Part shown: positions 22,433 through 63,121 of the stretch, one piece after another
Layout of the letters: the number at the start of each line of letters is the position of its first letter
How positions within the stretch are numbered: the stretch's first letter is position 1
IMG/VR virus record: IMGVR_UViG_3300036770_003326
Span: 25,530-89,529 of that record
Direction: 5' to 3' (one strand)
Length of the DNA stretch: 64,000 nucleotides
DNA from: a virus
Position numbers and translations under genes: made by a program
Notes under the pieces: model-generated
The model's database searches: none
What the model saw: only the letters and a program-made list of their open reading frames with translations
Told to the model about the DNA's origin: nothing

Positions 22433-22462
22433 CTAATTATCTAACCTTTAAATCAGAATAAA

Positions 22463-22729
22463 ATGGAACAGAAACAGACAGCAGTAGAATGGTTGGTCCA
22501 ACAACTAAGAAATGGTAAGGAATTTAATGATGAATTAATCCAACAAGCCAAAGCAATGGAGAAAGAAGAAATAATGTATAGTGAGGAAGAAGTTTTAGAA
22601 ATACTACAAAAATGGTCAATGTATCAAGTTGACATAGAGTTGAATAAATTAAATATAAAAGAACTAAATGATGTGTTGAAAAAAACATTGTCATATAAAG
22701 AATGGTTTGGTCAAATCAAAAAGAAGTAA
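22463..22729 (+). CDS. TAVEWL-family small protein (chimeric C-terminus)
   Basis: QTAVEWL..QAKAMEKEE, then MYSEEEV...WFGQIKKK. Confidence 0.7.
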   Translation: MEQKQTAVEWLVQQLRNGKEFNDELIQQAKAMEKEEIMYSEEEVLEILQKWSMYQVDIELNKLNIKELNDVLKKTLSYKEWFGQIKKK

Positions 22730-22730
22730 T

Positions 22731-22793
22731 ATGGGAAAAGGATTAGACGTAGAAAAGTTTATGAAAGAAAAAGAAACCTTTAAATCAGAATAA
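22731..22793 (+). CDS. 20-aa micro-ORF ending TFKSE
   Basis: MGKGLDVEKFMKEKETFKSE*. Confidence 0.4.
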   Translation: MGKGLDVEKFMKEKETFKSE

Positions 22794-22794
22794 A

Positions 22795-23019
22795 ATGAAA
22801 ACAGCAGTAGAATGGTTGGTTGAAGAAATAAATAAACTAACTGGATTAACGATTCAAATGGATGAGCCAATAATTGAACAAGCTAAAGAAATGGAAAAAG
22901 AGCAGATAAAAAGTGCATTCACACAAGGTGATTTATTTGCAGAAGATTATTTTAACCCTGAAAAATCTAACATCGATTGTTCAGAAAATTACTACAACAA
23001 AACCTTTAAATCAGAATAA
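22795..23019 (+). CDS. TAVEWL-family small protein
   Basis: MKTAVEWL..QAKEMEKEQI..YYNKTFKSE. Confidence 0.75.
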   Translation: MKTAVEWLVEEINKLTGLTIQMDEPIIEQAKEMEKEQIKSAFTQGDLFAEDYFNPEKSNIDCSENYYNKTFKSE

Positions 23020-23107
23020 CGGTTTGCGGCTTTGCAATAGCCGCCAAAGAAGAATTTAATTATTAACCGAGAATTGTCAGGCGGCTATTGCAAAACCGCT
23101 GTTAGCC
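23014..23107 (+). mobile_element. attC-like site 1
   Basis: GAATAAC ... 20-bp arms (19/20) at 23026-45 and 23080-99 ... GTTAGCC. Confidence 0.6.
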
Positions 23108-23134
23108 GCTGGCCTTTCTCACAACTTTAAAACA

Positions 23135-23365
23135 ATGACAGCAAAAGAACAAGCAAGTAGTTTAGTTGAGTATTTTTGGACAGATGTTGAAGAGTTTAAA
23201 CAATACGAAACTATTAAAATGACAAAAGAAATGGCTAAAGATTGTGCCATAAAAGTAGCTGAAGAAGCTAAAATAGAAATAGGAAATTTTGATAGAACTG
23301 ATGGATTTGTCAAAACTCGTGAAGATTTTTGGGATGCTGTCATTGTCGAAATACGGTCTATGTAG
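23135..23365 (+). CDS. MTAKE-family small protein inside cassette 1
   Basis: Paralog of 25584..25793 (AKDCAIKVAEE / AKQCALVAVNE; FW..V..EI). Confidence 0.7.
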   Translation: MTAKEQASSLVEYFWTDVEEFKQYETIKMTKEMAKDCAIKVAEEAKIEIGNFDRTDGFVKTREDFWDAVIVEIRSM

Positions 23366-23371
23366 GCTTGC

Positions 23372-23494
23372 GGCTAACGTTCCGAGTATTTGCGTAGTGC
23401 CTATACTGAACTATATTGTAAAATACAAAACTTAAAAATATGCAGAAAAGATTATTAGAATTACGAAAGGCATTACGCAAATACTGTGTTATGT
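23372..23494 (+). mobile_element. attC-like site 2
   Basis: GGCTAAC ... 18-bp arms (17/18) at 23385-402 and 23468-85 ... GTTATGT. Confidence 0.65.
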
Positions 23495-23512
23495 GCCGTT
23501 TTTATTCAGATT

Positions 23513-23854
23513 ATGACAACGAAAGAGAAGATAATAAATCAAAGCATTGAGCAAGTTGAAAAGCAACTCAAAGAAATCAATTTGATACTTGAAGCTAATC
23601 CTTTAAGCGAGATATGTAAAATTAGACAAGAAGCACAAAAATTGCTCGATGAAAACAAAACTGTTGAGCAAAGAACGAGTGATGATTTTATTGCTAAAAT
23701 AGAAGCATTGTCTAAACGTGAAAAAGAGCAATTTGCATTAGCTGAAAAAGGCAAGGATAGTATAAAATTGATTGACGAAAAAGTCAAATTAGAGTTTGAG
23801 TTGTCAGACTTGCGAAATGAACTGTATCATATTGAACGTAGGCGCGTGTCTTAA
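23513..23854 (+). CDS. Coiled-coil protein inside cassette 2
   Basis: Start moved to ATG 23513 (MTTKEK) because the track start lies inside the attC-like site. Confidence 0.65.
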   Translation: MTTKEKIINQSIEQVEKQLKEINLILEANPLSEICKIRQEAQKLLDENKTVEQRTSDDFIAKIEALSKREKEQFALAEKGKDSIKLIDEKVKLEFELSDLRNELYHIERRRVS

Positions 23855-23860
23855 AATGGC

Positions 23861-23911
23861 ACATAACACCAAAGCAGGTGAAGTTTTAATTTCACTTGCT
23901 GACTGTTATCC
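23861..23911 (+). mobile_element. attC-like site 3 (short)
   Basis: ACATAAC ... agcaggtgaagtt / aatttcacttgct ... GTTATCC. Confidence 0.55.
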
Positions 23912-23955
23912 GCAGTTTTAATTGCGAAAGTTATTAACCTTTAAATCAGAATAAA

Positions 23956-24177
23956 ATGAAACAGACAGCCGTAGAATGGTTAGTTGAAAAATTTTCAACT
24001 CAAGGAACATTACATAGTTCAGATATATCACAAGCCAAAGCAATGGAGAAGGAGCAGATAATGGATGCAAGAGAAGATGGTCATTTATCTACATATGCAG
24101 AATATGGTTCAACTCCTAAATGTTACTTAGACGGAGGACATGAACAATACTACAACGAAACATTTAAATCAGAATAA
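23956..24177 (+). CDS. TAVEWL-family small protein
   Basis: MKQTAVEWL..QAKAMEKEQI..EQYYNETFKSE. Confidence 0.75.
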   Translation: MKQTAVEWLVEKFSTQGTLHSSDISQAKAMEKEQIMDAREDGHLSTYAEYGSTPKCYLDGGHEQYYNETFKSE

Positions 24178-24178
24178 G

Positions 24179-24376
24179 ATGGAACTATTTAAAAGTAAAT
24201 GGGGTCAATGGACAGACCTATCAACTACGGGGTATATGGGGTATAAATATTTACTTCAAGCAAGAAGGCATAAAGACGGAAGAATACAATACAGAGTAGA
24301 AAAAAGTAAGGATTGCTATACTTGCAACATTCCAACACTTGAACAATTAGAAAAAGTAACCTTTAAATCAGAATAA
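24179..24376 (+). CDS. Array hypothetical protein ending TFKSE
   Basis: Start placed at the repeat ATG 24179. Confidence 0.65.
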   Translation: MELFKSKWGQWTDLSTTGYMGYKYLLQARRHKDGRIQYRVEKSKDCYTCNIPTLEQLEKVTFKSE

Positions 24377-24377
24377 G

Positions 24378-24563
24378 ATGAAAACAATAAATGACTTTAT
24401 TAAAGAACTTCAAATGATTAGTGAAGAAAAAAGAAAATTACCATTGGTTGTTCAATGTCCAAATGGGGAAATAACATCACCAACAATTAAGATGATGTGG
24501 GATGAACCATTAATGATGTTTGAAAAAGAACCTGATAAAATGATTATTAGTTGGAGAGATTAA
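24378..24563 (+). CDS. Array hypothetical protein
   Basis: Runs from a repeat ATG to a stop overlapping the next repeat. Confidence 0.65.
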   Translation: MKTINDFIKELQMISEEKRKLPLVVQCPNGEITSPTIKMMWDEPLMMFEKEPDKMIISWRD

Positions 24564-24581
24564 CCTTTAAATCAGAATAGA

Positions 24582-24980
24582 ATGATAATACAAACAAGAA
24601 GGACTTATGATTTTATTGAAATAAAAGTTGATGAAATTAAAACTACAATTTTTAAAAGTGACATTAAGGAAATAAATGACACAATTGAAAATTTATTACA
24701 AGTAGTTGATGAATTAAAAACACTAAAAGAAAGACAAAAAAACAGAACTATGAAACAAACAGCAGTAGAATGGTTGGTTAACGAACTTAAAAACAATCAC
24801 GGTATAGATTTAAAATTATACAATGAGTTTGACAAAGCCAAAGAAATGGAGAAAAAGCAGAGAAAAAAAGACTTTGTTAATGGCTATAAATCAAGAGCCA
24901 AAGAAAGCAATTTAATTTTTGATGAAACCTCTGAAATGTATGCAATTAAATTATTTAACGAAACCTTTAAATCAGAATAG
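24582..24980 (+). CDS. Fusion of an unrelated ORF with a TAVEWL-family unit
   Basis: Internal MKQTAVEWL at ATG 24750. Confidence 0.65.
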   Translation: MIIQTRRTYDFIEIKVDEIKTTIFKSDIKEINDTIENLLQVVDELKTLKERQKNRTMKQTAVEWLVNELKNNHGIDLKLYNEFDKAKEMEKKQRKKDFVNGYKSRAKESNLIFDETSEMYAIKLFNETFKSE

Positions 24981-24981
24981 A

Positions 24982-25368
24982 ATGAAAGCAAATGAATTAA
25001 GAATAGGAAATTATGTTTATGATACTTTAGGTAAAGTAAATACCTATATTGTAAAAGAACCACATAATCAAGTTAAACCAATCCCGCTAACAGAAGAATG
25101 GTTGTTGAAGTTTGGATTTAAAAAATACCCTGACATTAGAGATACATTTCAACAAGTATATTATGATTCCTATCAACTTGAAATTGATAGATTTACTATT
25201 ATTTCATTTTCTATCCAACAAAACAATAAAAATTTGATTAAGTGTAATTATGATAGAGGTTATAGGTCAGAAGATAATAAAAAAAATTATTACATCAAAT
25301 ATCTTCATCAACTTCAAAACCTATACTTTGCACTTACAGGAGAAGAATTAACCTTTAAATCAGAATAG
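24982..25368 (+). CDS. YopX-like phage protein ending TFKSE
   Basis: MKANELRIGN...PIPLTEEWLLKFGF...HQLQNLYFALTGEEL; start at repeat ATG 24982. Confidence 0.65.
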   Translation: MKANELRIGNYVYDTLGKVNTYIVKEPHNQVKPIPLTEEWLLKFGFKKYPDIRDTFQQVYYDSYQLEIDRFTIISFSIQQNNKNLIKCNYDRGYRSEDNKKNYYIKYLHQLQNLYFALTGEELTFKSE

Positions 25369-25369
25369 A

Positions 25370-25582
25370 ATGAAAACAATAACAAAATCAGTAATTAAGT
25401 TGTCGGATATTCCACAGCATTTACAACAAAATGTAGCATTACAAGGACATAAAATACATACTTATGCAGAGTTTCACATTGATAATTCAGAACAAGATGA
25501 TTTAACATTGTGGCTATTAAATAAACATCCTACATTAAAAAGGAAAATAAGTTTTTTAATTCATATTGATAAATCAGAATAG
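25370..25582 (+). CDS. Array hypothetical protein ending KSE
   Basis: Bounded by junction repeats. Confidence 0.65.
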   Translation: MKTITKSVIKLSDIPQHLQQNVALQGHKIHTYAEFHIDNSEQDDLTLWLLNKHPTLKRKISFLIHIDKSE

Positions 25583-25583
25583 A

Positions 25584-25793
25584 ATGACAGCAAAAGAAAA
25601 AGCAAATAGATTGTGCATTGATTTTTTAATGAACATTGATACAGATGATTGTGATTTTGGAATGAATAAAGAAATGGCAAAACAATGTGCATTGGTTGCA
25701 GTGAATGAAATACTTGAAAGTTTTATAATAACTATCCCTAAACATCAAACTGAGTTTTGGGAGCAAGTTAAACAAGAAATAATTAACCTTTAA
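25584..25793 (+). CDS. MTAKE-family small protein
   Basis: Start at repeat ATG 25584; paralog of 23135..23365. Confidence 0.7.
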   Translation: MTAKEKANRLCIDFLMNIDTDDCDFGMNKEMAKQCALVAVNEILESFIITIPKHQTEFWEQVKQEIINL

Positions 25794-25804
25794 ATTAGAA
25801 TAAG

Positions 25805-26047
25805 ATGACAGCAGTAGAAGAATTAATACATTTTATTAAAAATGATAGAATGCAAAGTACATACACAAAAGAACAAATATTGGAACTACTTAAATTTAAG
25901 TTAGAAAAAGAGAAAGAGCAGATGATTGAATTTGCTAAGTACACAGAATTTATTGATACAGATAAAAGTGATATGAACAAAGTAATAGACTTTTACTTAA
26001 CACTTGACGGAGAAGAATTTGTTGAAGAAACCTTTAAATCAGAATAA
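25805..26047 (+). CDS. Divergent TAVE-family protein ending TFKSE
   Basis: MTAVEEL...EKEKEQM...ETFKSE. Confidence 0.7.
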   Translation: MTAVEELIHFIKNDRMQSTYTKEQILELLKFKLEKEKEQMIEFAKYTEFIDTDKSDMNKVIDFYLTLDGEEFVEETFKSE

Positions 26048-26048
26048 G

Positions 26049-26250
26049 ATGGAAAACAGCAGTAGAATGGTTTCAAGAACAGTTTAATAAGTATTATGCT
26101 TTTTCAAAGGAAGAAATGCAAACATTTGATTGGATGTTTAACAAAGCCAAAGAAATGGAGAAAGAGCAGATAATAGATGCTTGTAAACAATGTTCTTATA
26201 GTTATGAAGAAGCAGAACAATACTACAACGAAACCTTTAAATCAGAATAA
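26049..26250 (+). pseudogene. Frameshifted TAVEWL-family unit
   Basis: ATG-G-AAAACAGCAGTAGAATGG has one extra G relative to the 22795 copy; the shifted frame reads KTAVEWF..KAKEMEKEQI..EQYYNETFKSE*. Confidence 0.7.
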
Positions 26251-28022: not shown

Positions 28023-29777
28023 ATGATTTATTTAGTAACTAACCAACGGAGTTTATTTAATTCCGTTGGTTATATTATATGTGATGTAGAAGAATCTTTA
28101 AAATATTTAAATAACCTTGATATAATAGCAGTCGATACAGAAACTATGGGTATGGATCCCTATACTTGTAATTTAGTTTCTTTGCAATTAGGCGATAACG
28201 ACAAGCAATATGTAATAGATGTTAATACAGTAGATATCAAAGTATATAAAGAATTACTTGAGAGTAAAACACTAATATTTCATAATGCAAAATTTGATTT
28301 AAGGTTTTTATATCATCATAATATAGTACCAAAGAAAATATTTGATACTTTTTTAGTAGAAAGAATATTGTTTACGGGCATAGACTCTGCAAGAAAATCT
28401 TTAGATGCTGTAGTGCATAAATACTGCAAAATAGAACTTGATAAAACTGTTCGCGGTGCCATTCACAGAGAAGGTTTGAGTACAAGAGTAATAAAATATG
28501 CTGCTTACGATGTAAAGTTTCTTCATGAAGTAATGAGAAAACAACAAGTATTTCTACAAGAACATAACTTAACTCGTACTGCTAGTTTAGACAATGAATT
28601 TGTTAAAGTTCTAGCTTATATAGAGTATTGTGGTTTTTATCTAAATCCTAAAGATTGGCAAAAAAAGTGCGAAGAAGACTTGAAAGATCTAAACGTCATA
28701 AAAGCACAATTGGATCAATTTATTCTAGATAATCCTGAAAAATATAGCAAGTATATAGACAATCAATTAAGTTTATTTGACGAAGGAACAAAATGTAAAT
28801 TAAACTGGGCTTCTTCTCATCAAGTAATTCCTTTTATGCAAAGTCTAGGTGTTGATACTCTTACTAAAGATAAACAAACAGGCTTATCTAAACATTCTGT
28901 AGATAAAAAAGTAATAGGGCCACAAAAGAAAAAACATCCTATTATTAAAACTTATATAGAATTTACTGAGCATCAAAAAGTTGTAAGTACTTATGGTGAA
29001 AATTGGTTTAATTATATTAATCCTGTTACTAAACGTGTACATAGCAATTATCAGCAAATTATGAATACTGGTAGATTATCTAGTGGTCAAAAAGGAGATA
29101 GAAAGAAAAACTTACCACAATTGCCTAATATGCAAAATATACCTAGTGATTCTAGAACTAGATCATGTTTTCAAGCACAAAAAGGTAACAAACTTATAGT
29201 GAGTGACTATTCTGGCCAAGAACAAATAGTATTGGCTAATAAGAGTTTGGATCCTGACTTGTTATATTTTTATTCTCAAGGTCTTGGAGATATGCATAGT
29301 TTTGTTGCAAGTAAAATATTTCCTGAGCTTAGTAATTTAACTCTTGATGAGATTAAAAACAACCACAAAGACAAACGACAGATTGCTAAAGGTGCTGGTT
29401 TTGCGATAAATTATGGTGGTACTGGAATTACTATTTCTCAAAATCTTTCTATTTCTATGGAAGAAGGCGAAAAAGTATATCAAGAATATTTTAAAGCATT
29501 TCCTGGATTAGCTAATTATTTTAAACAAGAAAAACAAAAGGCTTTAAAACTAGGCTATATAGAGTTTAATAATATTAGCAACCGTAAATGTTTTATAGAT
29601 TATTTTCAAGACTTTACTAGATTGCACAATGATATTTATAATACAGAAGGTTTTTGGGAAAATTACAAACACGAAAAAGAAAATAATACTGAAAAATTTA
29701 AATTGTTCTATAAACCCAAAGTACGTGAATATTTTATGAAAAAAGGTGATATTGAACGTATGTCACTTAATTATCCT
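28023..29777 (+). CDS. polA: DNA polymerase family A, exon 1
   Basis: 3'-5' exonuclease motifs DTET, HNAKFD, YAAYD; TGRLSS; motif A DYSGQE; motif B RQIAKGAGFAINYG; ends at NYP. Confidence 0.93.
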
Positions 29778-34874: not shown

Positions 34875-35549
34875 ATGGCACAATTAGTATTCCTGGTTGG
34901 AAAATCGGGTATGGGTAAATCTACCTCATTGAGAAACCTAAACCCTGATGAAACTGTAATTATCAACACTGATCAAAAAGCGTTGCCTTTCAAACAGTTT
35001 AATCTAAAATATAATGAGGAAAGAAAGAATTACAAAAAGACTTCTGATGCTGTAGAAGTCTATAAAGTACTGAACAAAGTAAACAGCATGGAAAATGTTA
35101 AAACTGTTGTAATAGATACTTGGTCAAGAATTATGACTGACGCTATTATGTCACAAAGTTTTCGTGCAGAAAAAGGCTTTGATAAATGGTCTAAGATGGC
35201 CGCTAATCAATATGATTTAATTAATTATATTAACGACGGTATGAGAGATGATATAATAGTATATCTAATGGCTCATCCTGAAACTCATTTTGATGAAAAC
35301 GGCTTTTCTACTGAACGTATTGGCGTACAAGGTAAAATGCTTGAGCGTTTTGTGCCAGAAAGTTTTAGTACCATAGTACTTTATGCAGAAATTATCAAAC
35401 AGCCTGGACAAGCTAACAAACATGTATTTAGAACTGTATCTTCAGGTTCTGATACTTGTAAAACGCCTTTAGAAATGTTTGAAACAGACAGTGTAGAAAA
35501 TGATTTATTACTTGTAAATCAAAAAATTAGAGAATATTATTCAATTTAA
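34875..35549 (+). CDS. AAA-type P-loop ATPase (Sak4/AAA_24-like)
   Basis: GKSGMGKSTS, VVIDT, C-terminal KTP..MF. Confidence 0.8.
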   Translation: MAQLVFLVGKSGMGKSTSLRNLNPDETVIINTDQKALPFKQFNLKYNEERKNYKKTSDAVEVYKVLNKVNSMENVKTVVIDTWSRIMTDAIMSQSFRAEKGFDKWSKMAANQYDLINYINDGMRDDIIVYLMAHPETHFDENGFSTERIGVQGKMLERFVPESFSTIVLYAEIIKQPGQANKHVFRTVSSGSDTCKTPLEMFETDSVENDLLLVNQKIREYYSI

Positions 35550-61800: not shown

Positions 61801-63121
61801 AAACAGGAGTTGCTGAAACTGTTATACCTTCTAATTCTGCTTGTTTTTTCTTTACATCAGAATCGTTAAAAAAATTATTGATAGCTTCTTGCCCTACCGT
61901 ACTACTAGTAGTATGAGTAGCGAAAACTATTTCCGCATCTTTTCCTTGTATTACTTGCTTAATAGATTGTATTTCTAAAGTAGGTTTGCCTTTAAAATCA
62001 ACTACTTTAGCAATTATTCTAATTTTATGACTAGAATCTTTAGGAAAATTTTTTGATGTAAAATATTTTACTATAGTATTAGGGTCACTTAAACTTTCAT
62101 TTAGTTCGTTAATAGGAGTATTGAAGATAGGGTTTTCATCCGTCTTATCTGCAGTATTTGTTATAGGACTATTGCCTGTAGTTTTACTAGCAGTAGTGTC
62201 AGGAATTTTTACTGTTAGTATATTATTTATTGCTTGTTTTTCTGCAGGGCTTAATTTATAAGCTTCTAATACAAACGAACTAGAATTAAATAAATTTCCA
62301 TCTTCTGCAAATAAATCTGTTGTTACTGCGCCTGCATTAGATATAAAAGTATTATAGTCTTCTTTATTAATTTTTAAATAGTCTACTCTAAATACTTGTT
62401 CTCCTAAAAATTCTAAGACATCAGCATAATTATCATAAGTTGCCGTAATGTTTTCAGCTATTTCAGGACTGTATTTAGAAACTATATATTTATTGTTTTT
62501 AAACTCTACAGTAATTCTATAAAAATTAGACTCTATTCTTTTACGTATTTCTTTTATCTTATCTACGTTAGTCTCATTTCTTAAATTATCTAATTCAGTT
62601 CCTAAAGCATTAATTATACTAGTATTTTTAACTAAGTTATTAAATAACCTAACTGGATATAAACCATAAGCAGAAGGTACTAACATGTACGGGATACCTT
62701 CAGTAAGATTTTCTTTTACTTTAATTCCTAATTCAGAATTTAATAAATCTTCTTTTATTTTTTGGTTTTCAGTTCCTTGTCCTGTATAAAGTTCTCCGTT
62801 TACTTTAATTACTAGTTTAAAAGGTTGACCTATTCTTTGTAATAATGTTTGCGGATTTTGTTTTAAAGCTATTTCAGGTTGTCCTGGTTGTTTGCCATTA
62901 TTTAAATTCCTTTGAATTTTTTGTAGAATTCTTACAGTAACAGGAGATTTTTGTATAGTTTGTTTATTAAAACTGGCTAGTTTTTCTTGGGATATTTCAA
63001 ACTTATCTTTAAGATTAATATTATTTTTAGAAAGTAATTCATCTAGTAAACCATTTTCTAATATTTGTTTGAATTCTTCTTCTGTACGAAATTTTCCATC
63101 GTACCAATACTGACAAGCCAT
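52814..63121 (-). CDS. Giant virion RNA polymerase (crAss-like) with zincin-like and NADAR-like domains
   Basis: Catalytic AGLDFDIDK, GYRIPT, VDNAKDP; YHEAFH; 3435 aa. Confidence 0.88.
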   Translation of the reverse strand: MACQYWYDGKFRTEEEFKQILENGLLDELLSKNNINLKDKFEISQEKLASFNKQTIQKSPVTVRILQKIQRNLNNGKQPGQPEIALKQNPQTLLQRIGQPFKLVIKVNGELYTGQGTENQKIKEDLLNSELGIKVKENLTEGIPYMLVPSAYGLYPVRLFNNLVKNTSIINALGTELDNLRNETNVDKIKEIRKRIESNFYRITVEFKNNKYIVSKYSPEIAENITATYDNYADVLEFLGEQVFRVDYLKINKEDYNTFISNAGAVTTDLFAEDGNLFNSSSFVLEAYKLSPAEKQAINNILTVKIPDTTASKTTGNSPITNTADKTDENPIFNTPINELNESLSDPNTIVKYFTSKNFPKDSSHKIRIIAKVVDFKGKPTLEIQSIKQVIQGKDAEIVFATHTTSSTVGQEAINNFFNDSDVKKKQAELEGITVSATPVSDVEAKIALGQEVIDIVWDRLAKQGITNADSIVGTRDTIENVDFDKFWSNVTKEDLENLKKSYQTKKQQQLDLYDKFKGKFDPSTGTFTSNDTSFFDNKIKNVNAELAALEGTPTTSSTINKTITKKRIKLKNPITDFSKDAQALLNNPNPTIEEYNSVVGNYEFDLSADLTEELRADIESQLEDIKNTFEISSAKPKTSIITAAAEEYLTQTAESEVEETVDNILGIPSGQTLEDLMAVSGDIIANEEDVPTGLFDDVDEFGDDADSFQDDNIRTKLAEPRDTPEEIKLDKEKAVEYLKKVFGENYTRRKNKTEKTDRVKGNVRMFRDFENLKNYLPKETWEMLVEARRQGKVLHGLFTEAAMYLWENTEEGTTYHEAFHVVFNLALPLKTRMQLINEAYEKYKDELPLETIVKNGKEYKQLANYKVVEELLADKFVDFTIAAKELEGKQKSYGYLDFRSEVQKSMVTPLDILVGITKGTVKSKDAIAKQFVGMYKMLKGFYTKNSPNIDDLFENINLGTYANKIKFKNTSFKARTSLKDAENIYRYENPIEREHAFTYLKRSMEKILDNERSKIDPDSIMSEAEIINKIGVDKFYSLLLTRLAGTIAKTQSTKPDIAKRLYKLYQILTEGGSKSTKIKEGDTTFYAFTGNTILLELFNNTLRERNIYITLDNEAKNYNGISKTREEENTTIFDDLNEGTTTEEQSYDKSYITVNARESLSHQLKNLLSRLPKYKSNRKNASKVINSLGVEEYEKANVVYSYLISKLSNSYTMKDMMDKLKELNRPYIKDILAAIDQNPKLATDFWVAMGQKNYATFMTIQEDNGVMKVFRSNRRTLDSMIRDVLISEFLDPSNKIFVTDGKYNPEIINLEEANKFYQDVAAMRTASQNSGLWQTPGKKEELFKDIEKVLSDYNISITEDQLHNIWIPRGETGNWRNIGQFLTAVENIAIALTQNSNPFTFLKPSSDEVIGTNLRDKENAKSLVEKLANILQPAAEKEVVSSFRNIDNETVHNLIASGFINKHFETYKDSDKLNAYLEKIGADQLMSEMPFIKDLQDTTNNLQKDLDVVILDGFTRKGKRKSAGYTDMSDIELETCNLAMYSNSNARESAYYKLPIPADKSTLPYVKAKKYTREEVVDKLTDVAALEFNRIITNKKLNKSSLLRLIPNYFKNSTEFKILGFLNGKVSTTAAFNRNEVRAIIDEFLSYDVNTNGFLAKQIEKYKDAGIITGINEATGEFSFVERFIDTNIKKDDRTTFFKDYLVNTYYMNTQLSTLLAGDPSFYKNLGDIQKRFAQVVSPGTYGDTSNLPTYYKAIILNDSIQPTEKQTADHILSIINSSTNLTPQEKKELSVFWTAKTEKSDGNNETDGATYIHPNRRKEQLESLNRWTPEHELAHQRILAGKETIEDLMLINPPFKPEKPFIYTQITVAGKQIPIQIKNAETVLTRSFAETSPELMALYNDMEAGKFTVAMFESAVKVGGVGNSVNAKGKVRFGEYNLKDDKYVLSDNTYIHELPTEDWRLQQETPSHYIDERAGFGTQIKQLILGDLNLDGDYNLLGKTYKGRDIARIYQNTIVQDLKESYKEVEKIFLDSDNKLNWPKITAELRREVIARELGQDYLDAIQAIPVLANGEQIGYETKMPLYHPMLLYTVESLMNSIFRNRITKQKIKGGNLINTTSFGVSNKLKTIVDPVTGTVTYQALLPHSSKKYFPLTPDGKVDIEFIKEKAPDLLRIIGYRIPTEDKYSMFNIEIVGFTPPSMGGTVILPREITTIAGLDFDIDKLYFMAREFYVNSKGIPKVIEYVKKPSNREEALSYAENIYSSFKDLKRFLELYVKDKKTIEKILDSRRQATEAQINNEKTSKEIEGIKQDISKAKEVRDEIKKLKTDLADNYLYQQQQEIIDDLYEYFNEEVASFDLTKGNILKLSKPNLELIADILESKEFNATEYSTKKSRDNLKIDIIQSILSNKNTATAILNPGNFESLKDRAAKIRLLKAGKIEEARLKGDALRQAAEKLDVTQDLDFNYPSTQLELFNRNMMGKKLIGIFANHNVHHAKAQYTNLRLKNPLKVNNKNYQALNNAYVDGKRISRILATDLAAVVDNAKDPIASFLNMNTYTANTIALLERLGIDEDTVFAFINQPSIIALTKLYYINKGSMSEKNMMAEIRKRWTTAAKKRYGGELKTAWDSTLNLEDLEKNITPQNTKEYYEFQLQMLNAFDAINKIALELNEGIMASKIDVTGLGINSSANFVLIQKQQAIYDKISSGDNLIEGLDEMLETKSNQLMNPASNLYGIIKPINIMNQIFPSIGVYNESNKKLIYSVLGNIKRIIGNNKLKSGLTEKEAKMVDTQFLDFIASAFPFFNYSQAKDILQKVPERLQAFKKSLPADSPLRDFVDQLYIKEADNTFKLKRIEFYNTGKTPAEIEAIKYLWERMIKDSDPDVKTLGLDLIKYTYFAQGFGFSPYSFAKLIPLEFWTDKFQRENNILSKEGTTFNRFLRSFLDSNTIAPKKSNVPNEKLIADEGIITNRFIDQFIKNNAGRETFVPTIEIGKYLDKNQEKELLTDEDRETAIVKLAREKGSVKTSKGAIVMLINSNKEYFPFGENNPPVPYIKETNKKGEVKLYKYVERRFQNPLEYGTFSAPDVVVYQPVNTSGYTNFILEYDYYNDIIKPVVIDIAFDYNDAVKGAPKKLGDQMLAVENALIESAPDLMDLMAIEGAMEFMPTTVAPVKKDPNDPKTDKGDILGLSGMPSLPVDIEEITKNVESIKTEKENPFGVILDPNEMPSQNLADLMSGAAALRGIEISSNAKGLAAALTNPTELAKSKDNLTQSYPIEFNGKTYKDVESAYQSLKDKSESQTKPTKENSKNYKLMVDLITAKLQQHPGLVSEITKQGGSAWILASTHQPTKANTVWETGGQNWFIEALNDAYLSIQPTTSQQQGSATNNWEDYRKAMNDLMKINKEGAIELGLLSQEEFLSLSEKEQKAAIWQAKNCY

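Follow-up and report, generated by a model that had tools for sequence, protein, structure and literature searches.

The window, a 64,000-nt stretch of a viral contig (G000, 89.5 kb, ~70% complete), most likely carries at 23020-23866 two mobile cassettes of an integron-like recombination system that is specific for hairpin sites, followed by a vestigial third site. We put the probability of this reading at about 0.78. Three TAAC...GTTA hairpin sites bound two small ORFs at 23017-23908 (Table 1). Since the contig is without a recombinase whereas related contigs pair such arrays with one, the window holds a small integrase-less cassette cluster that resembles a CALIN. The site system itself is widespread in uncultured viral contigs.

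Three hairpin sites bound two small ORFs

The original prediction, made from the letters of the window alone, described three imperfect TAAC...GTTA palindromes, and their arms, stems and positions were confirmed, the third being marginal. The sites measure 45-117 nt from TAAC to GTTA, their stems are backed by covariation, and their DNA folds are better than those of shuffled sequences (z -2.2 to -4.8). No palindrome of this type in the 89.5-kb contig is stronger than sites 1 and 2, and Rfam gave no match at the sites (E<=1). The spacers on the two sides of the stem (left/right, 5/1 nt in site 1 and 6/2 nt in site 2) bear out the predicted 4-nt asymmetry, and in site 3 the asymmetry is 1, compared with 3-4 typically. 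The loop of site 1 contains the motif TTAATTATTAACCGAGAA, and at least 10 viral contigs have near-identical copies of its hairpin, each ahead of a different ORF. It had also been proposed that site 1 starts within a junction repeat; indeed, the TAA of its TAAC is the stop codon of the repeat at 23001-23019, which occurs 12 times in the window (0.28 expected).

Table 1. Features of the cassette block in the window, and further segments shared between other contigs
Feature	Position	Strand	Description
Left flank	23001-23019	+	Junction repeat belonging to the phage's own gene array; its stop codon, 23017-23019, supplies the TAA of the first TAAC
Site 1, attC-like hairpin	23017-23104	+	TAAC 23017-23020; 5-nt spacer; 20-bp stem, arms 23026-23045 / 23080-23099 (20 nt, 95% complementary); 34-nt loop; 1-nt spacer; GTTA 23101-23104
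Cassette A	23020-23377	+	Hairpin 1, leading core GTTAGCCGCTGGCC, 5' leader, ORF A, trailing core GCGGCTAA
ORF A	23135-23365	+	76 aa, no assigned function
Site 2, attC-like hairpin	23375-23491	+	TAAC 23375-23378; 6-nt spacer; 18-bp stem with G.T wobble, arms 23385-23402 / 23468-23485 (18 nt, 94%); 65-nt loop; 2-nt spacer; GTTA 23488-23491
Cassette B	23378-23866	+	Hairpin 2, leading core GTTATGTGCCGTTTT, ORF B, trailing core AAAATGGCACATAA
ORF B	23513-23854	+	113 aa, no assigned function
Site 3, mini-hairpin	23864-23908	+	After last TAAC, end of cassette B; TAAC 23864-23867; 10-bp stem 23873-23882 / 23891-23900; 8-nt loop; GTTA 23905-23908; ORF absent
Right flank	23936-23954	+	Next junction repeat of the phage gene array
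Shared segment G001/L078			992 bp
Shared segment L067/L072			488 bp
Shared segment L017/L030			345 bp
Shared segment L025/L045/L063			~316 bp
Shared segment L017 with L048/L053/L070/L079			287 bp

A covariance model (R1) was built from 31 sites of other contigs and none from the window; it contains 24 pairs, 19 of them with compensatory changes. The three window sites are its three best loci, all on the + strand, with E-values that are rough because the calibration was shortened: 74.2 bits and E 1e-11 for site 2 (25.3 bits on the - strand), 53.9 bits and E 7e-8 for site 1 (19.1 bits on the - strand), and a marginal 23.0 bits and E 0.035 for site 3 (14.8 bits on the - strand), the next unrelated match reaching 17.6 bits (E 0.35). 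The third palindrome stands as a + strand match to the family but not as a full attC-like site, being a mini-site in which the ORF and the closing trailing core are absent; no trailing core complementary to its leading core was found elsewhere on the + strand of the window. We regard site 3 as a marginal, vestigial mini-site, and the two-cassette reading leaves the right end of the block unexplained.

Within each cassette the leading and trailing cores are complementary, in agreement with the original prediction. In cassette A, 23101-23115 pairs with 23364-23378 (15 nt, 87%), and in cassette B, 23486-23502 pairs with 23853-23869 (17 nt, 94%).

Shared segments run from TAAC to TAAC

Comparison with other viral contigs locates the edges of the cassettes. 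Positions 23013-23383 (371 bp, cassette A) are 97% identical to a segment of G001 with TAAC at its left edge and TAACGTTCC at its right, and positions 23472-23867 (396 bp, cassette B) are 87% identical to a segment of G004 that terminates exactly at GGCACATAAC, after which the two contigs carry different hairpins. In an all-vs-all blastp comparison, cassette A is all that G000 has in common with G001, and cassette B all that it has in common with G004. Eight more contig pairs, in five groups, share DNA that is likewise bounded TAAC to TAAC (Table 1). Among the HSPs between contigs, 103/218 have their first base at the T or A of TAAC; exchange points fall sharply at this tetranucleotide and are not scattered through the repeat, and the HSPs end 34-40 nt past GTTA. 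A hairpin termed X is accompanied by several distinct leading cores in L031, L082, and L058, which indicates that exchange is not restricted to TAAC.

Because the segments shared between unrelated contigs span TAAC to TAAC, the hairpin is carried upstream in each cassette. These comparisons show that the mobile unit extends between successive TAACs, its hairpin ahead of the ORF and the ORF on the folding strand. The original prediction had placed a G|TT crossover on the + strand and a hairpin trailing its ORF, and in this respect it has to be revised, as the shared segments begin and end at TAAC and the hairpin leads. An ORF with a downstream hairpin, the canonical polarity, was also considered as the unit and was dropped after comparing segments of L001, L004, G001, and G004.

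L199 has an allele of the left flank that is free of cassettes, which answers the question whether empty-site alleles occur for this flank. There, the upstream 74-aa gene is 99.1% identical to that of the window up to 23018 and then runs on without cassettes, the identity ending at TAA|C of site 1.

Cores also pair across the wider site family. When the 9 nt after GTTA were compared with the reverse-complemented 9 nt that precede the following TAAC (the chain rule), at least 7/9 positions agreed in 31/62 consecutive site pairs, compared with 84/4965 random pairs and 1/116 own-site pairs; half of the consecutive pairs miss the rule partly because the scanner overlooks sites.

The sites are also marked for strand. 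Our scanner found 130 oriented sites in 878,171 bases versus 16 in shuffles, raw counts that are not independent because many sites are homologous copies. The left spacer is longer by 3-4 nt in 98/130 of them. Stem mismatches, counted on one representative per cluster, are predominantly G.T (92), the others being C.A (9), T.G (5), and other types (9), and two G.U pairs are invariant in 31/31 aligned sites. At 71/109 sites an ORF of 40 aa or more begins 10-90 nt past GTT on the same strand; on the opposite strand this is so at 8/109. The ORFs lie on the same strand as the G.T wobbles, and a conserved leader (..GCTTCTCACAA..) connects site and ATG.

A blastn search of the window region against the phage collection returned three tiny matches only. 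In Logan contigs of public runs no piece spans the stretch, and many joints arise from junction-repeat paralogues. One X4 Logan contig links ~23022 to 23854, with what lies between not known, and X1 Logan contigs have other letters before 23487 and after 23869, as would fit other cassettes or hairpins; neither observation was counted as evidence.

A tyrosine recombinase is linked to the arrays in other contigs

An Xer/IntI-like tyrosine recombinase of 264-266 aa is encoded in 4/37 other site-bearing viral records, 37-55 nt after the last TAAC and on the same strand. Same-strand sites lie directly upstream at 58 of the 62 viral recombinase loci with at least 1 kb of upstream sequence, and a downstream site was present at only 3/80 loci. 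Searching 40 recombinase loci with model R1 gave 139 matches (E<=1e-6) from 32/40 loci, all on the integrase strand and 137 of them upstream. A conserved attI-like motif, TAAC + TATTATATATA, terminates the arrays; it is present in 76/80 recombinase loci, the chain rule extends to it in 30/60, and it is absent from the window (<=1 mismatch). A dedicated tyrosine recombinase is thus tightly linked to arrays of such sites, a linkage that falls short of catalysis.

The enzyme aligns to VchIntIA in two pieces (query 14-177 with chain 13-180, and query 215-261 with chain 266-312), and therefore about 48 residues, corresponding to the IntI insertion, are missing from it. It scores 152 bits against TIGR02249 (cut-off 265) and falls under the cut-off of every NCBIfam Xer and IntI model. 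It is colinear with archaeal XerA (4a8e, 129 bits) and with XerD, and it has the size of Xer proteins and the domain set PF13495 + PF00589. The original description of integron-style cassettes holds as regards mobility and a recombinase in trans, but membership of the classical integron family does not, since the linked enzyme is Xer-like and lacks the IntI insertion.

The recombinase is absent from most site carriers. As originally stated, no tyrosine recombinase is visible in the window, and the whole of G000 (~70% complete) contains neither a PF00589 match nor a homologue of the 266-aa protein; PF01797 and PF00239 are both absent from it as well. A tyrosine recombinase was found in 0/6 site-bearing records that are at least 90% complete and is absent from the complete genome of Flavobacterium phage vB_FspS_hattifnatt9-1, a site carrier; all-vs-all ORF clustering of site-bearing loci revealed no common recombinase. 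The original prediction suggested looking in Bacteroidota genomes for cassettes beside tyrosine recombinases. Chromosomal homologues of the enzyme (38-48% identity) occur in 40/81 Flavobacteriaceae genomes, and 30 of these loci with 1.5-kb flanks contained no attI-like motif, no arrays, and at most two scanner matches, on opposite strands.

Putative mechanism

Read along the sense strand, a cassette consists of C, spacer, hairpin, GTTA, leading core, conserved leader, ORF, trailing core, and TAA. In the circular excised form, the trailing core would pair with the leading core, lengthening the hairpin into one long attC-like stem. The sense strand may fold as single-stranded DNA, and the small Xer/IntI-like tyrosine recombinase would then cut inside TAAC on the 5' arm; we infer this catalysis, the exact position of the cut and the single-stranded nature of the substrate. 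Strand exchange would take place with another such site, or with the attI-like TAAC + TATTATATATA just upstream of the recombinase's own gene, and replication would resolve the product, as in integrons. Because there is no recombinase in the contig, the cassettes of this phage would have been gained in trans, from a co-resident element with an integrase, or would have come with the flanking junction repeats.

We also lean, less firmly, towards a wider reading, in which the system is a second kind of integron that is independent of IntI. A ~265-aa Xer-type recombinase with its own attI-like TAAC + TATTATATATA would capture and shuffle cassettes whose attC-like hairpins fold on the coding strand and are marked by invariant G.T wobbles, mostly in phages of Bacteroidota-like hosts. 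Cassettes would circulate among unrelated phage genomes, and therefore most phages, including this one, would hold integrase-less clusters stocked in trans.

Alternative explanations

That the palindromes are classical integron attC sites, with the block a phage CALIN derived from a bacterial integron and its cassettes moved at G|TT by a canonical host IntI, appears improbable. Their ..TAAC and GTTA.. core motifs, which we take to agree with the attC consensus, would speak for it. Our own scanner finds four sites of the window's kind in Flavobacteriaceae phage P12002L, for which the available text of Qi et al. (2023, PMC9892861) describes HattCI/Infernal attC detection and attC x attI1 recombination by IntI1 at one site. 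However, the boundaries we found are at the opposite end of the site relative to the ORF, and the array-linked recombinase lacks the IntI insertion. Integrons are moreover reported rare in complete genomes of Bacteroidetes (available text of PMC9024848), and the loop-motif pattern occurs at just 11 loci in 185,579 species genomes, mostly on short MAG contigs. About equally unlikely in our view is that the hairpins have a regulatory role, as terminators, leaders, or RNA-processing elements, and are moved about like PeSLs by homologous recombination between repeated copies, with no site-specific recombinase. In T4-type phages, PeSLs are mobile regulatory cassettes (Arbiol et al. 2010, PMC2839356; see also Comeau et al. 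2014, PMC4122927), and the former paper reports that they mediate shuffling and form mini-circles. Such hairpins would account for sites that are intergenic and on the sense strand, for the conserved leader up to the ATG together with HSPs ending 34-40 nt past GTTA, and for the lack of a recombinase in most carriers; the sense-strand G.T wobbles, being compatible with G.U, would suit an RNA structure just as well. Homologous exchange fails to predict the sharp left edge exactly at TAAC (103/218 HSPs), the compensating cores paired across each ORF, or the one-sided, co-directional linkage of a tyrosine recombinase with a conserved attI-like motif. A regulatory RNA role could nevertheless exist alongside recombination.

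Single-strand transposition or a rolling-circle-type element, in which an HUH enzyme (IS200/IS605-like Y1) or a serine recombinase recognises the hairpins and cuts next to them, is very unlikely. The sites resemble the ends of IS200/IS605 elements, which are strand-specific and combine subterminal hairpins with a short tetranucleotide, cleaved outside the stem, and the conserved loop motif may resemble a rolling-circle nick-site motif. Across 42 site-bearing records, PF01797 was found in one (G024), as unrelated copies, and PF00239 in none; the arrays show linkage to the tyrosine recombinase but to neither of these enzymes.

Comparison with known systems

Integrons, the textbook gene-capture device of bacteria, depend on a single integrase clade, and where their cassettes originate is unsolved. 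An attC site is an imperfect palindrome of roughly 57-141 bp with an inverse core ..AAC and a core GTT... The window sites share with it the imperfect palindrome and both cores. As in integrons and CALINs, each cassette has one ORF and one imperfect-palindrome site, a site has its outer core from the adjacent cassette, the two ends of a cassette being complementary, and homogeneous sites with strand-specific structural marks accompany diverse ORFs. The arrays adjoin a tyrosine recombinase and a distinct primary site, and integrase-less clusters occur in phages, often with DNA methyltransferases. The closest published case is that of CALINs in virulent phages, P12002L, a Polaribacter phage, among them (available text of Qi et al. 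2023).

The differences concern polarity, structure, and enzyme. In integrons attC follows the ORF and the ORFs lie on the non-folding top strand, whereas here the hairpin precedes the ORF, which lies on the folding strand. The integrase of integrons is divergent at the head of the array; the recombinase described here is downstream and co-directional, ~265 aa long, and devoid of the ~48-aa IntI insertion. Two extrahelical bases mark attC sites, in contrast to the conserved G.T wobbles and the 3-4-nt spacer asymmetry of the present sites. Unlike integrons, the hairpin-cassette system is found mainly on viral contigs.

XerCD acts on the folded single-stranded attachment site of the CTX phage. 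Among the Xer recombinases (XerA, XerC, and XerD), the array-linked enzyme is colinear in alignment with XerA and XerD, and it has the Xer size and domains, but its gene is linked to cassette arrays and not to a dif site or chromosome resolution. With PeSLs the system has in common repeated intergenic stem-loops around small accessory ORFs in plastic phage regions, shuffling, and possibly circles. PeSLs are promoter-terminator units spread by homologous exchange, in contrast to the fixed TAAC boundaries, the cores paired across ORFs, and the linked recombinase found here. A literature search found no description of an Xer-like platform, and PMC7077304 makes no mention of palindrome, hairpin, cassette, inverted repeat, integrase, or stem-loop.

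If our reading is true, cassette capture through hairpin sites evolved or diversified outside the IntI clade, and viruses would harbour a parallel system with a simpler Xer-like enzyme and the opposite gene polarity, which would account for small accessory genes moving between unrelated phages. The idea lends itself to direct testing, given a compact enzyme, well-defined sites, and a carrier phage that is in culture with its host (Flavobacterium phage vB_FspS_hattifnatt9-1).

Cassette genes and their neighbours

Searches of Pfam and PHROGs suggested no function for ORF A, ORF B, or their neighbours. ORF A has a weak match to phrog_21441 (E 2.6e-4) and none in Pfam, and Atlas returned viral hypothetical proteins only; ORF B matched neither Pfam nor PHROG, and Atlas gave nothing above 0.79. 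Whether homologous ORFs elsewhere travel with the palindromes had been put forward as a check on the original prediction, and in L001 and L004 they do. The copy of ORF B in L004 is 92% identical, and a relative at 49% identity in L005 is without hairpins. Around homologues of ORF A in L002 and L003 (33-34% identity) the cores differ, yet they are complementary. DNA methyltransferases are the commonest neighbours, present in 16/47 site-bearing sequences; the other neighbours are ordinary replication and recombination genes.

Layout of the cassette block

The IMG/VR viral contig G000 is 89.5 kb long, about 30% G+C, and estimated to be about 70% complete; its final 64 kb form the window. At window positions 22445-26249, small genes follow in a row on the + strand, linked to one another by a stop/start junction repeat, CCTTTAAATCAGAATA, of which this stretch holds 12 copies against 0.28 expected. 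The cassette block lies exactly between two of these copies, and the junction repeats are a second, different shuffling scaffold. The original prediction described three TAAC...GTTA hairpins (sites 1-3), and re-derivation of their coordinates, arms and cores proved the description correct to the base. Cassette A comprises hairpin 1 and ORF A, and cassette B comprises hairpin 2 and ORF B. The leading core is the stretch after GTTA, and the trailing core is the stretch before the next TAAC. As predicted, the leading core of site 1 pairs with the trailing core before site 2 over 15 nt at 87%, and that of site 2 with the core before site 3 over 17 nt at 94%; the 4-nt asymmetry noted at sites 1 and 2 is a left spacer 4 nt longer than the right. 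The sites fold better than their shuffles (z -2.2 to -4.8), and no other strong G+C-rich palindrome of this form occurs in the whole of G000. Site 3 is a mini-hairpin without an ORF, and no complementary partner was found for its leading core on the + strand of the window; the right end of the block is odd. Viral-contig relatives of the 74-aa gene preceding site 1 are very numerous (453 of 600 pattern matches).

Features of the cassette block (window coordinates)
Feature	Position	Strand	Remark
Flanking junction repeats	23001-23019 and 23936-23954	+	
Site 1	TAAC 23017; GTTA 23101	+	20-bp arms 23026-23045 / 23080-23099
Site 2	TAAC 23375; GTTA 23488	+	18-bp arms 23385-23402 / 23468-23485
Site 3	TAAC 23864; GTTA 23905	+	10-bp stem
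ORF A	23135-23365	+	76 aa, no function assigned
ORF B	23513-23854	+	113 aa, no function assigned

Cassettes move from TAAC to TAAC

ORF A recurs in viral record G001 with 99% amino-acid identity and ORF B in record G004 with 92%, and an all-versus-all blastp found nothing beyond the cassette common to G000 and either record. The cassette A DNA shared with G001 spans 371 bp at 97% identity. Its left edge is the TAAC of site 1, upstream of which G001 carries a different gene, and its right edge is GCGGCTAACGTTCC, followed by a different hairpin. Cassette B is shared with G004 over 396 bp at 87% identity, ending exactly at GGCACATAAC. These sharp borders indicate that an ORF moves with its upstream hairpin, not with the downstream one. 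TAAC-to-TAAC borders were found in 8 more contig pairs (5 groups), over 287 to 992 bp. The ORFs thus travel with their palindromes, as the original prediction anticipated, and the empty-site allele it called for was also found: in the relative L199, the 74-aa gene is 99.1% identical up to 23018 and is then followed by a plain junction repeat and another gene, a left flank without cassettes.

A family of sites across viral contigs

Searching with the loop motif of site 1 yielded 77 viral loci; judged by eye, about 55 of 78 motif matches are genuine TAAC-hairpin-GTTA sites, the others being coding matches. In at least 10 contigs the site-1 hairpin stands upstream of different ORFs, and another, hairpin "X", does so in about 30, including the cultured, complete Flavobacterium phage vB_FspS_hattifnatt9-1. 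Across 878,171 bases, a scanner with thresholds of our own setting counted 130 oriented sites, compared with 16 after shuffling; most of the contigs compared are fragments, and many of the sites are copies of a few hairpin families. The left spacer is longer by 3-4 nt in 98 of these 130. Leading and next trailing cores were complementary (at least 7 of 9 positions) in 31/62 consecutive pairs versus 84/4965 random pairs, and the two cores of one site matched each other at that level in 1/116 comparisons. Of 218 HSPs between contigs, 103 have the start of the conserved element at the T or A of TAAC; the element runs to the start codon, 34-40 nt past GTTA. What stays constant is therefore hairpin, leading core and leader, followed by a variable ORF and a trailing core that matches the leading one. 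Records G002 and G003 each have an ORF A homologue; the two share 92% identity and have unlike core pairs (..AGTGGCT.. / ..ATAGGTA..), each core change being compensated at the opposite end of the ORF.

The hairpin loops are not random. The loop motif, roughly AACTTAAT(N)ATTAACCGAGAA (window 23053-23070), is kept in several otherwise different hairpin families; it may serve in protein binding, as a promoter or as a nick site. The leader after the leading core (window 23105-23134) reads ..GGC/GCTTnTCACAA.., 6-12 nt, ATG, and is conserved irrespective of the ORF behind it, so that a 5' untranslated region belongs to the mobile constant part. By length, the sites form two classes (about 85-92 nt and 122-128 nt), and mini-sites of about 45-57 nt resembling site 3 also occur within arrays (e.g. 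locus L030). At 32/99 sites the upstream ORF stops in the TAA of TAAC itself, and at 28/99 its stop codon lies exactly 12 nt before TAAC (TAG...TAAC).

The sense strand carries the conserved fold

We built a covariance model, R1, from 31 sites of other contigs. Their alignment has 24 consensus pairs, 19 with compensatory changes, and two G.U pairs invariant in 31/31 sequences. With one representative for each of 74 clusters, stem mismatches were G.T 92, C.A 9, T.G 5 and other 9, and the mismatch recurring between cores is likewise G opposite T. An ORF starts after GTTA on the same strand at 71/109 sites and on the other strand at 8/109. The top three R1 loci are the window sites, which score 74.2, 53.9 and 23.0 bits, in each case on the + strand; their - strand scores are 25.3, 19.1 and 14.8 bits, and the next unrelated match reaches 17.6 bits. 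The site 3 match is marginal (E 0.035), R1 E-values being rough because of a shortened calibration. A perfect 11-bp inverted repeat with an 11-nt loop at window 28040-28072 (TAACCAACGGA / TCCGTTGGTTA) may be a terminator, since R1 gives it only 10.9 bits.

A small Xer-like recombinase at the tail of related arrays

The original prediction saw no tyrosine recombinase in the window, and this extends to the whole of G000 as available, where no tyrosine recombinase, Y1 transposase or resolvase was found; nor was a tyrosine recombinase found in G001-G005. PF00589 matched in 5 of 37 further site-bearing records, in 0 of the 6 that are at least 90% complete, and not in the complete hattifnatt9-1 genome. 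Four of the five matches are a distinct small protein, 264-266 aa in length; one copy is truncated at a contig end and another contains an in-frame stop. The fifth is an ordinary integrase of 409 aa, beside which no site was detected. All four small-protein genes start 37-55 nt past the TAAC of the last cassette, on the same strand, with no hairpin between.

The top NCBIfam model for this protein was the XerA-type "tyrosine recombinase/integron integrase" (169-171 bits, below its cut-off of 220), followed by the integron-integrase model (cut-off 265), which matched in two stretches with 152 bits, and then by XerD and XerC. Among solved structures, it aligned colinearly with archaeal XerA (129 bits), and with Vibrio IntI4 in two pieces, skipping about 48 IntI residues. 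Of 8,000 scored candidates, more than 7,900 are relatives at E<=1e-20, named only "XerD" or "integrase" at source.

Of 238 viral loci that encode relatives, we analysed the best 80. Among the 62 that extend 1 kb or more upstream, 58 have oriented sites on that side and on the same strand (as many as 13 in 6 kb), and a downstream site was present in only 3 of the 80. In 76 of these best 80 loci an attI-like motif, TAAC (or CAAC) followed by a conserved TATTATATATAAA, lies no more than 110 nt from the start codon, and the 9 nt preceding that TAAC are complementary to the leading core of the last hairpin at 7 or more positions in 30/60 loci. A scanner-independent search of 40 of these loci with R1 gave 139 matches at E<=1e-6, spread over 32 of the 40, all on the integrase strand and 137 upstream. 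Judged by sequence, array, primary site and integrase together have the architecture of an integron platform; unlike in that platform, the integrase stands at the array tail, co-directional with the array. No such arrays were found beside chromosomal homologues of the recombinase at 30 loci (1.5-kb flanks) from 81 Flavobacteriaceae genomes. The window has neither integrase nor attI-like motif.

In G027, the array-linked recombinase copy (L105, about 1165-1968) has an in-frame stop; this integrase appears decayed beside an intact-looking array. Record G024, rated 100% complete, has Y1 transposase (IS200/IS605-type) matches at 34883-35245, 62197-62376 and 64753-65115, which bear no relation to the cassette arrays.

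Proposed mechanism

The sense strand would fold when single-stranded, and once a cassette is free and circular, its trailing and leading cores would lengthen the stem. The Xer-like enzyme, whose catalytic role is suggested by linkage, would bind the folded structure and may tell the strands apart by the G.T wobbles and the 3-4-nt spacer asymmetry. Sequence places the predicted cut only to within TAAC, on the 5' arm. Strand exchange with an attI-like site or another hairpin would follow, and replication would resolve the product, as is established for integrons. The coding strand would be the counterpart of the recombinogenic "bottom" strand of integrons, so the genes would face the opposite way. 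The two window cassettes may have been installed in trans, or brought with junction repeats by homologous exchange.

Comparison with published systems

We found no published description of the Xer-like recombinase platform, its attI-like motif, the reversed polarity or the TAAC-to-TAAC cassette definition. Integrons are rare in Bacteroidetes according to IntegronFinder 2.0 (PMC9024848). By lifestyle, the PeSL cassettes of T4-type phages (PMC2839356) come closest among phage systems, but they differ from the present cassettes in mechanism. Qi et al. (2023) report 17 CALINs from 10,705 phage genomes screened with IntegronFinder and HattCI. One of these CALINs includes methyltransferases and belongs to the virulent Polaribacter phage P12002L, one site of which recombined in an IntI1-dependent manner (PMC9892861). 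AttC-like sites in an integrase-less phage are therefore already published. Our scanner found four sites of the TAAC-hairpin-GTTA kind in P12002L, and the methyltransferase of this phage has a relative in the G002 array.
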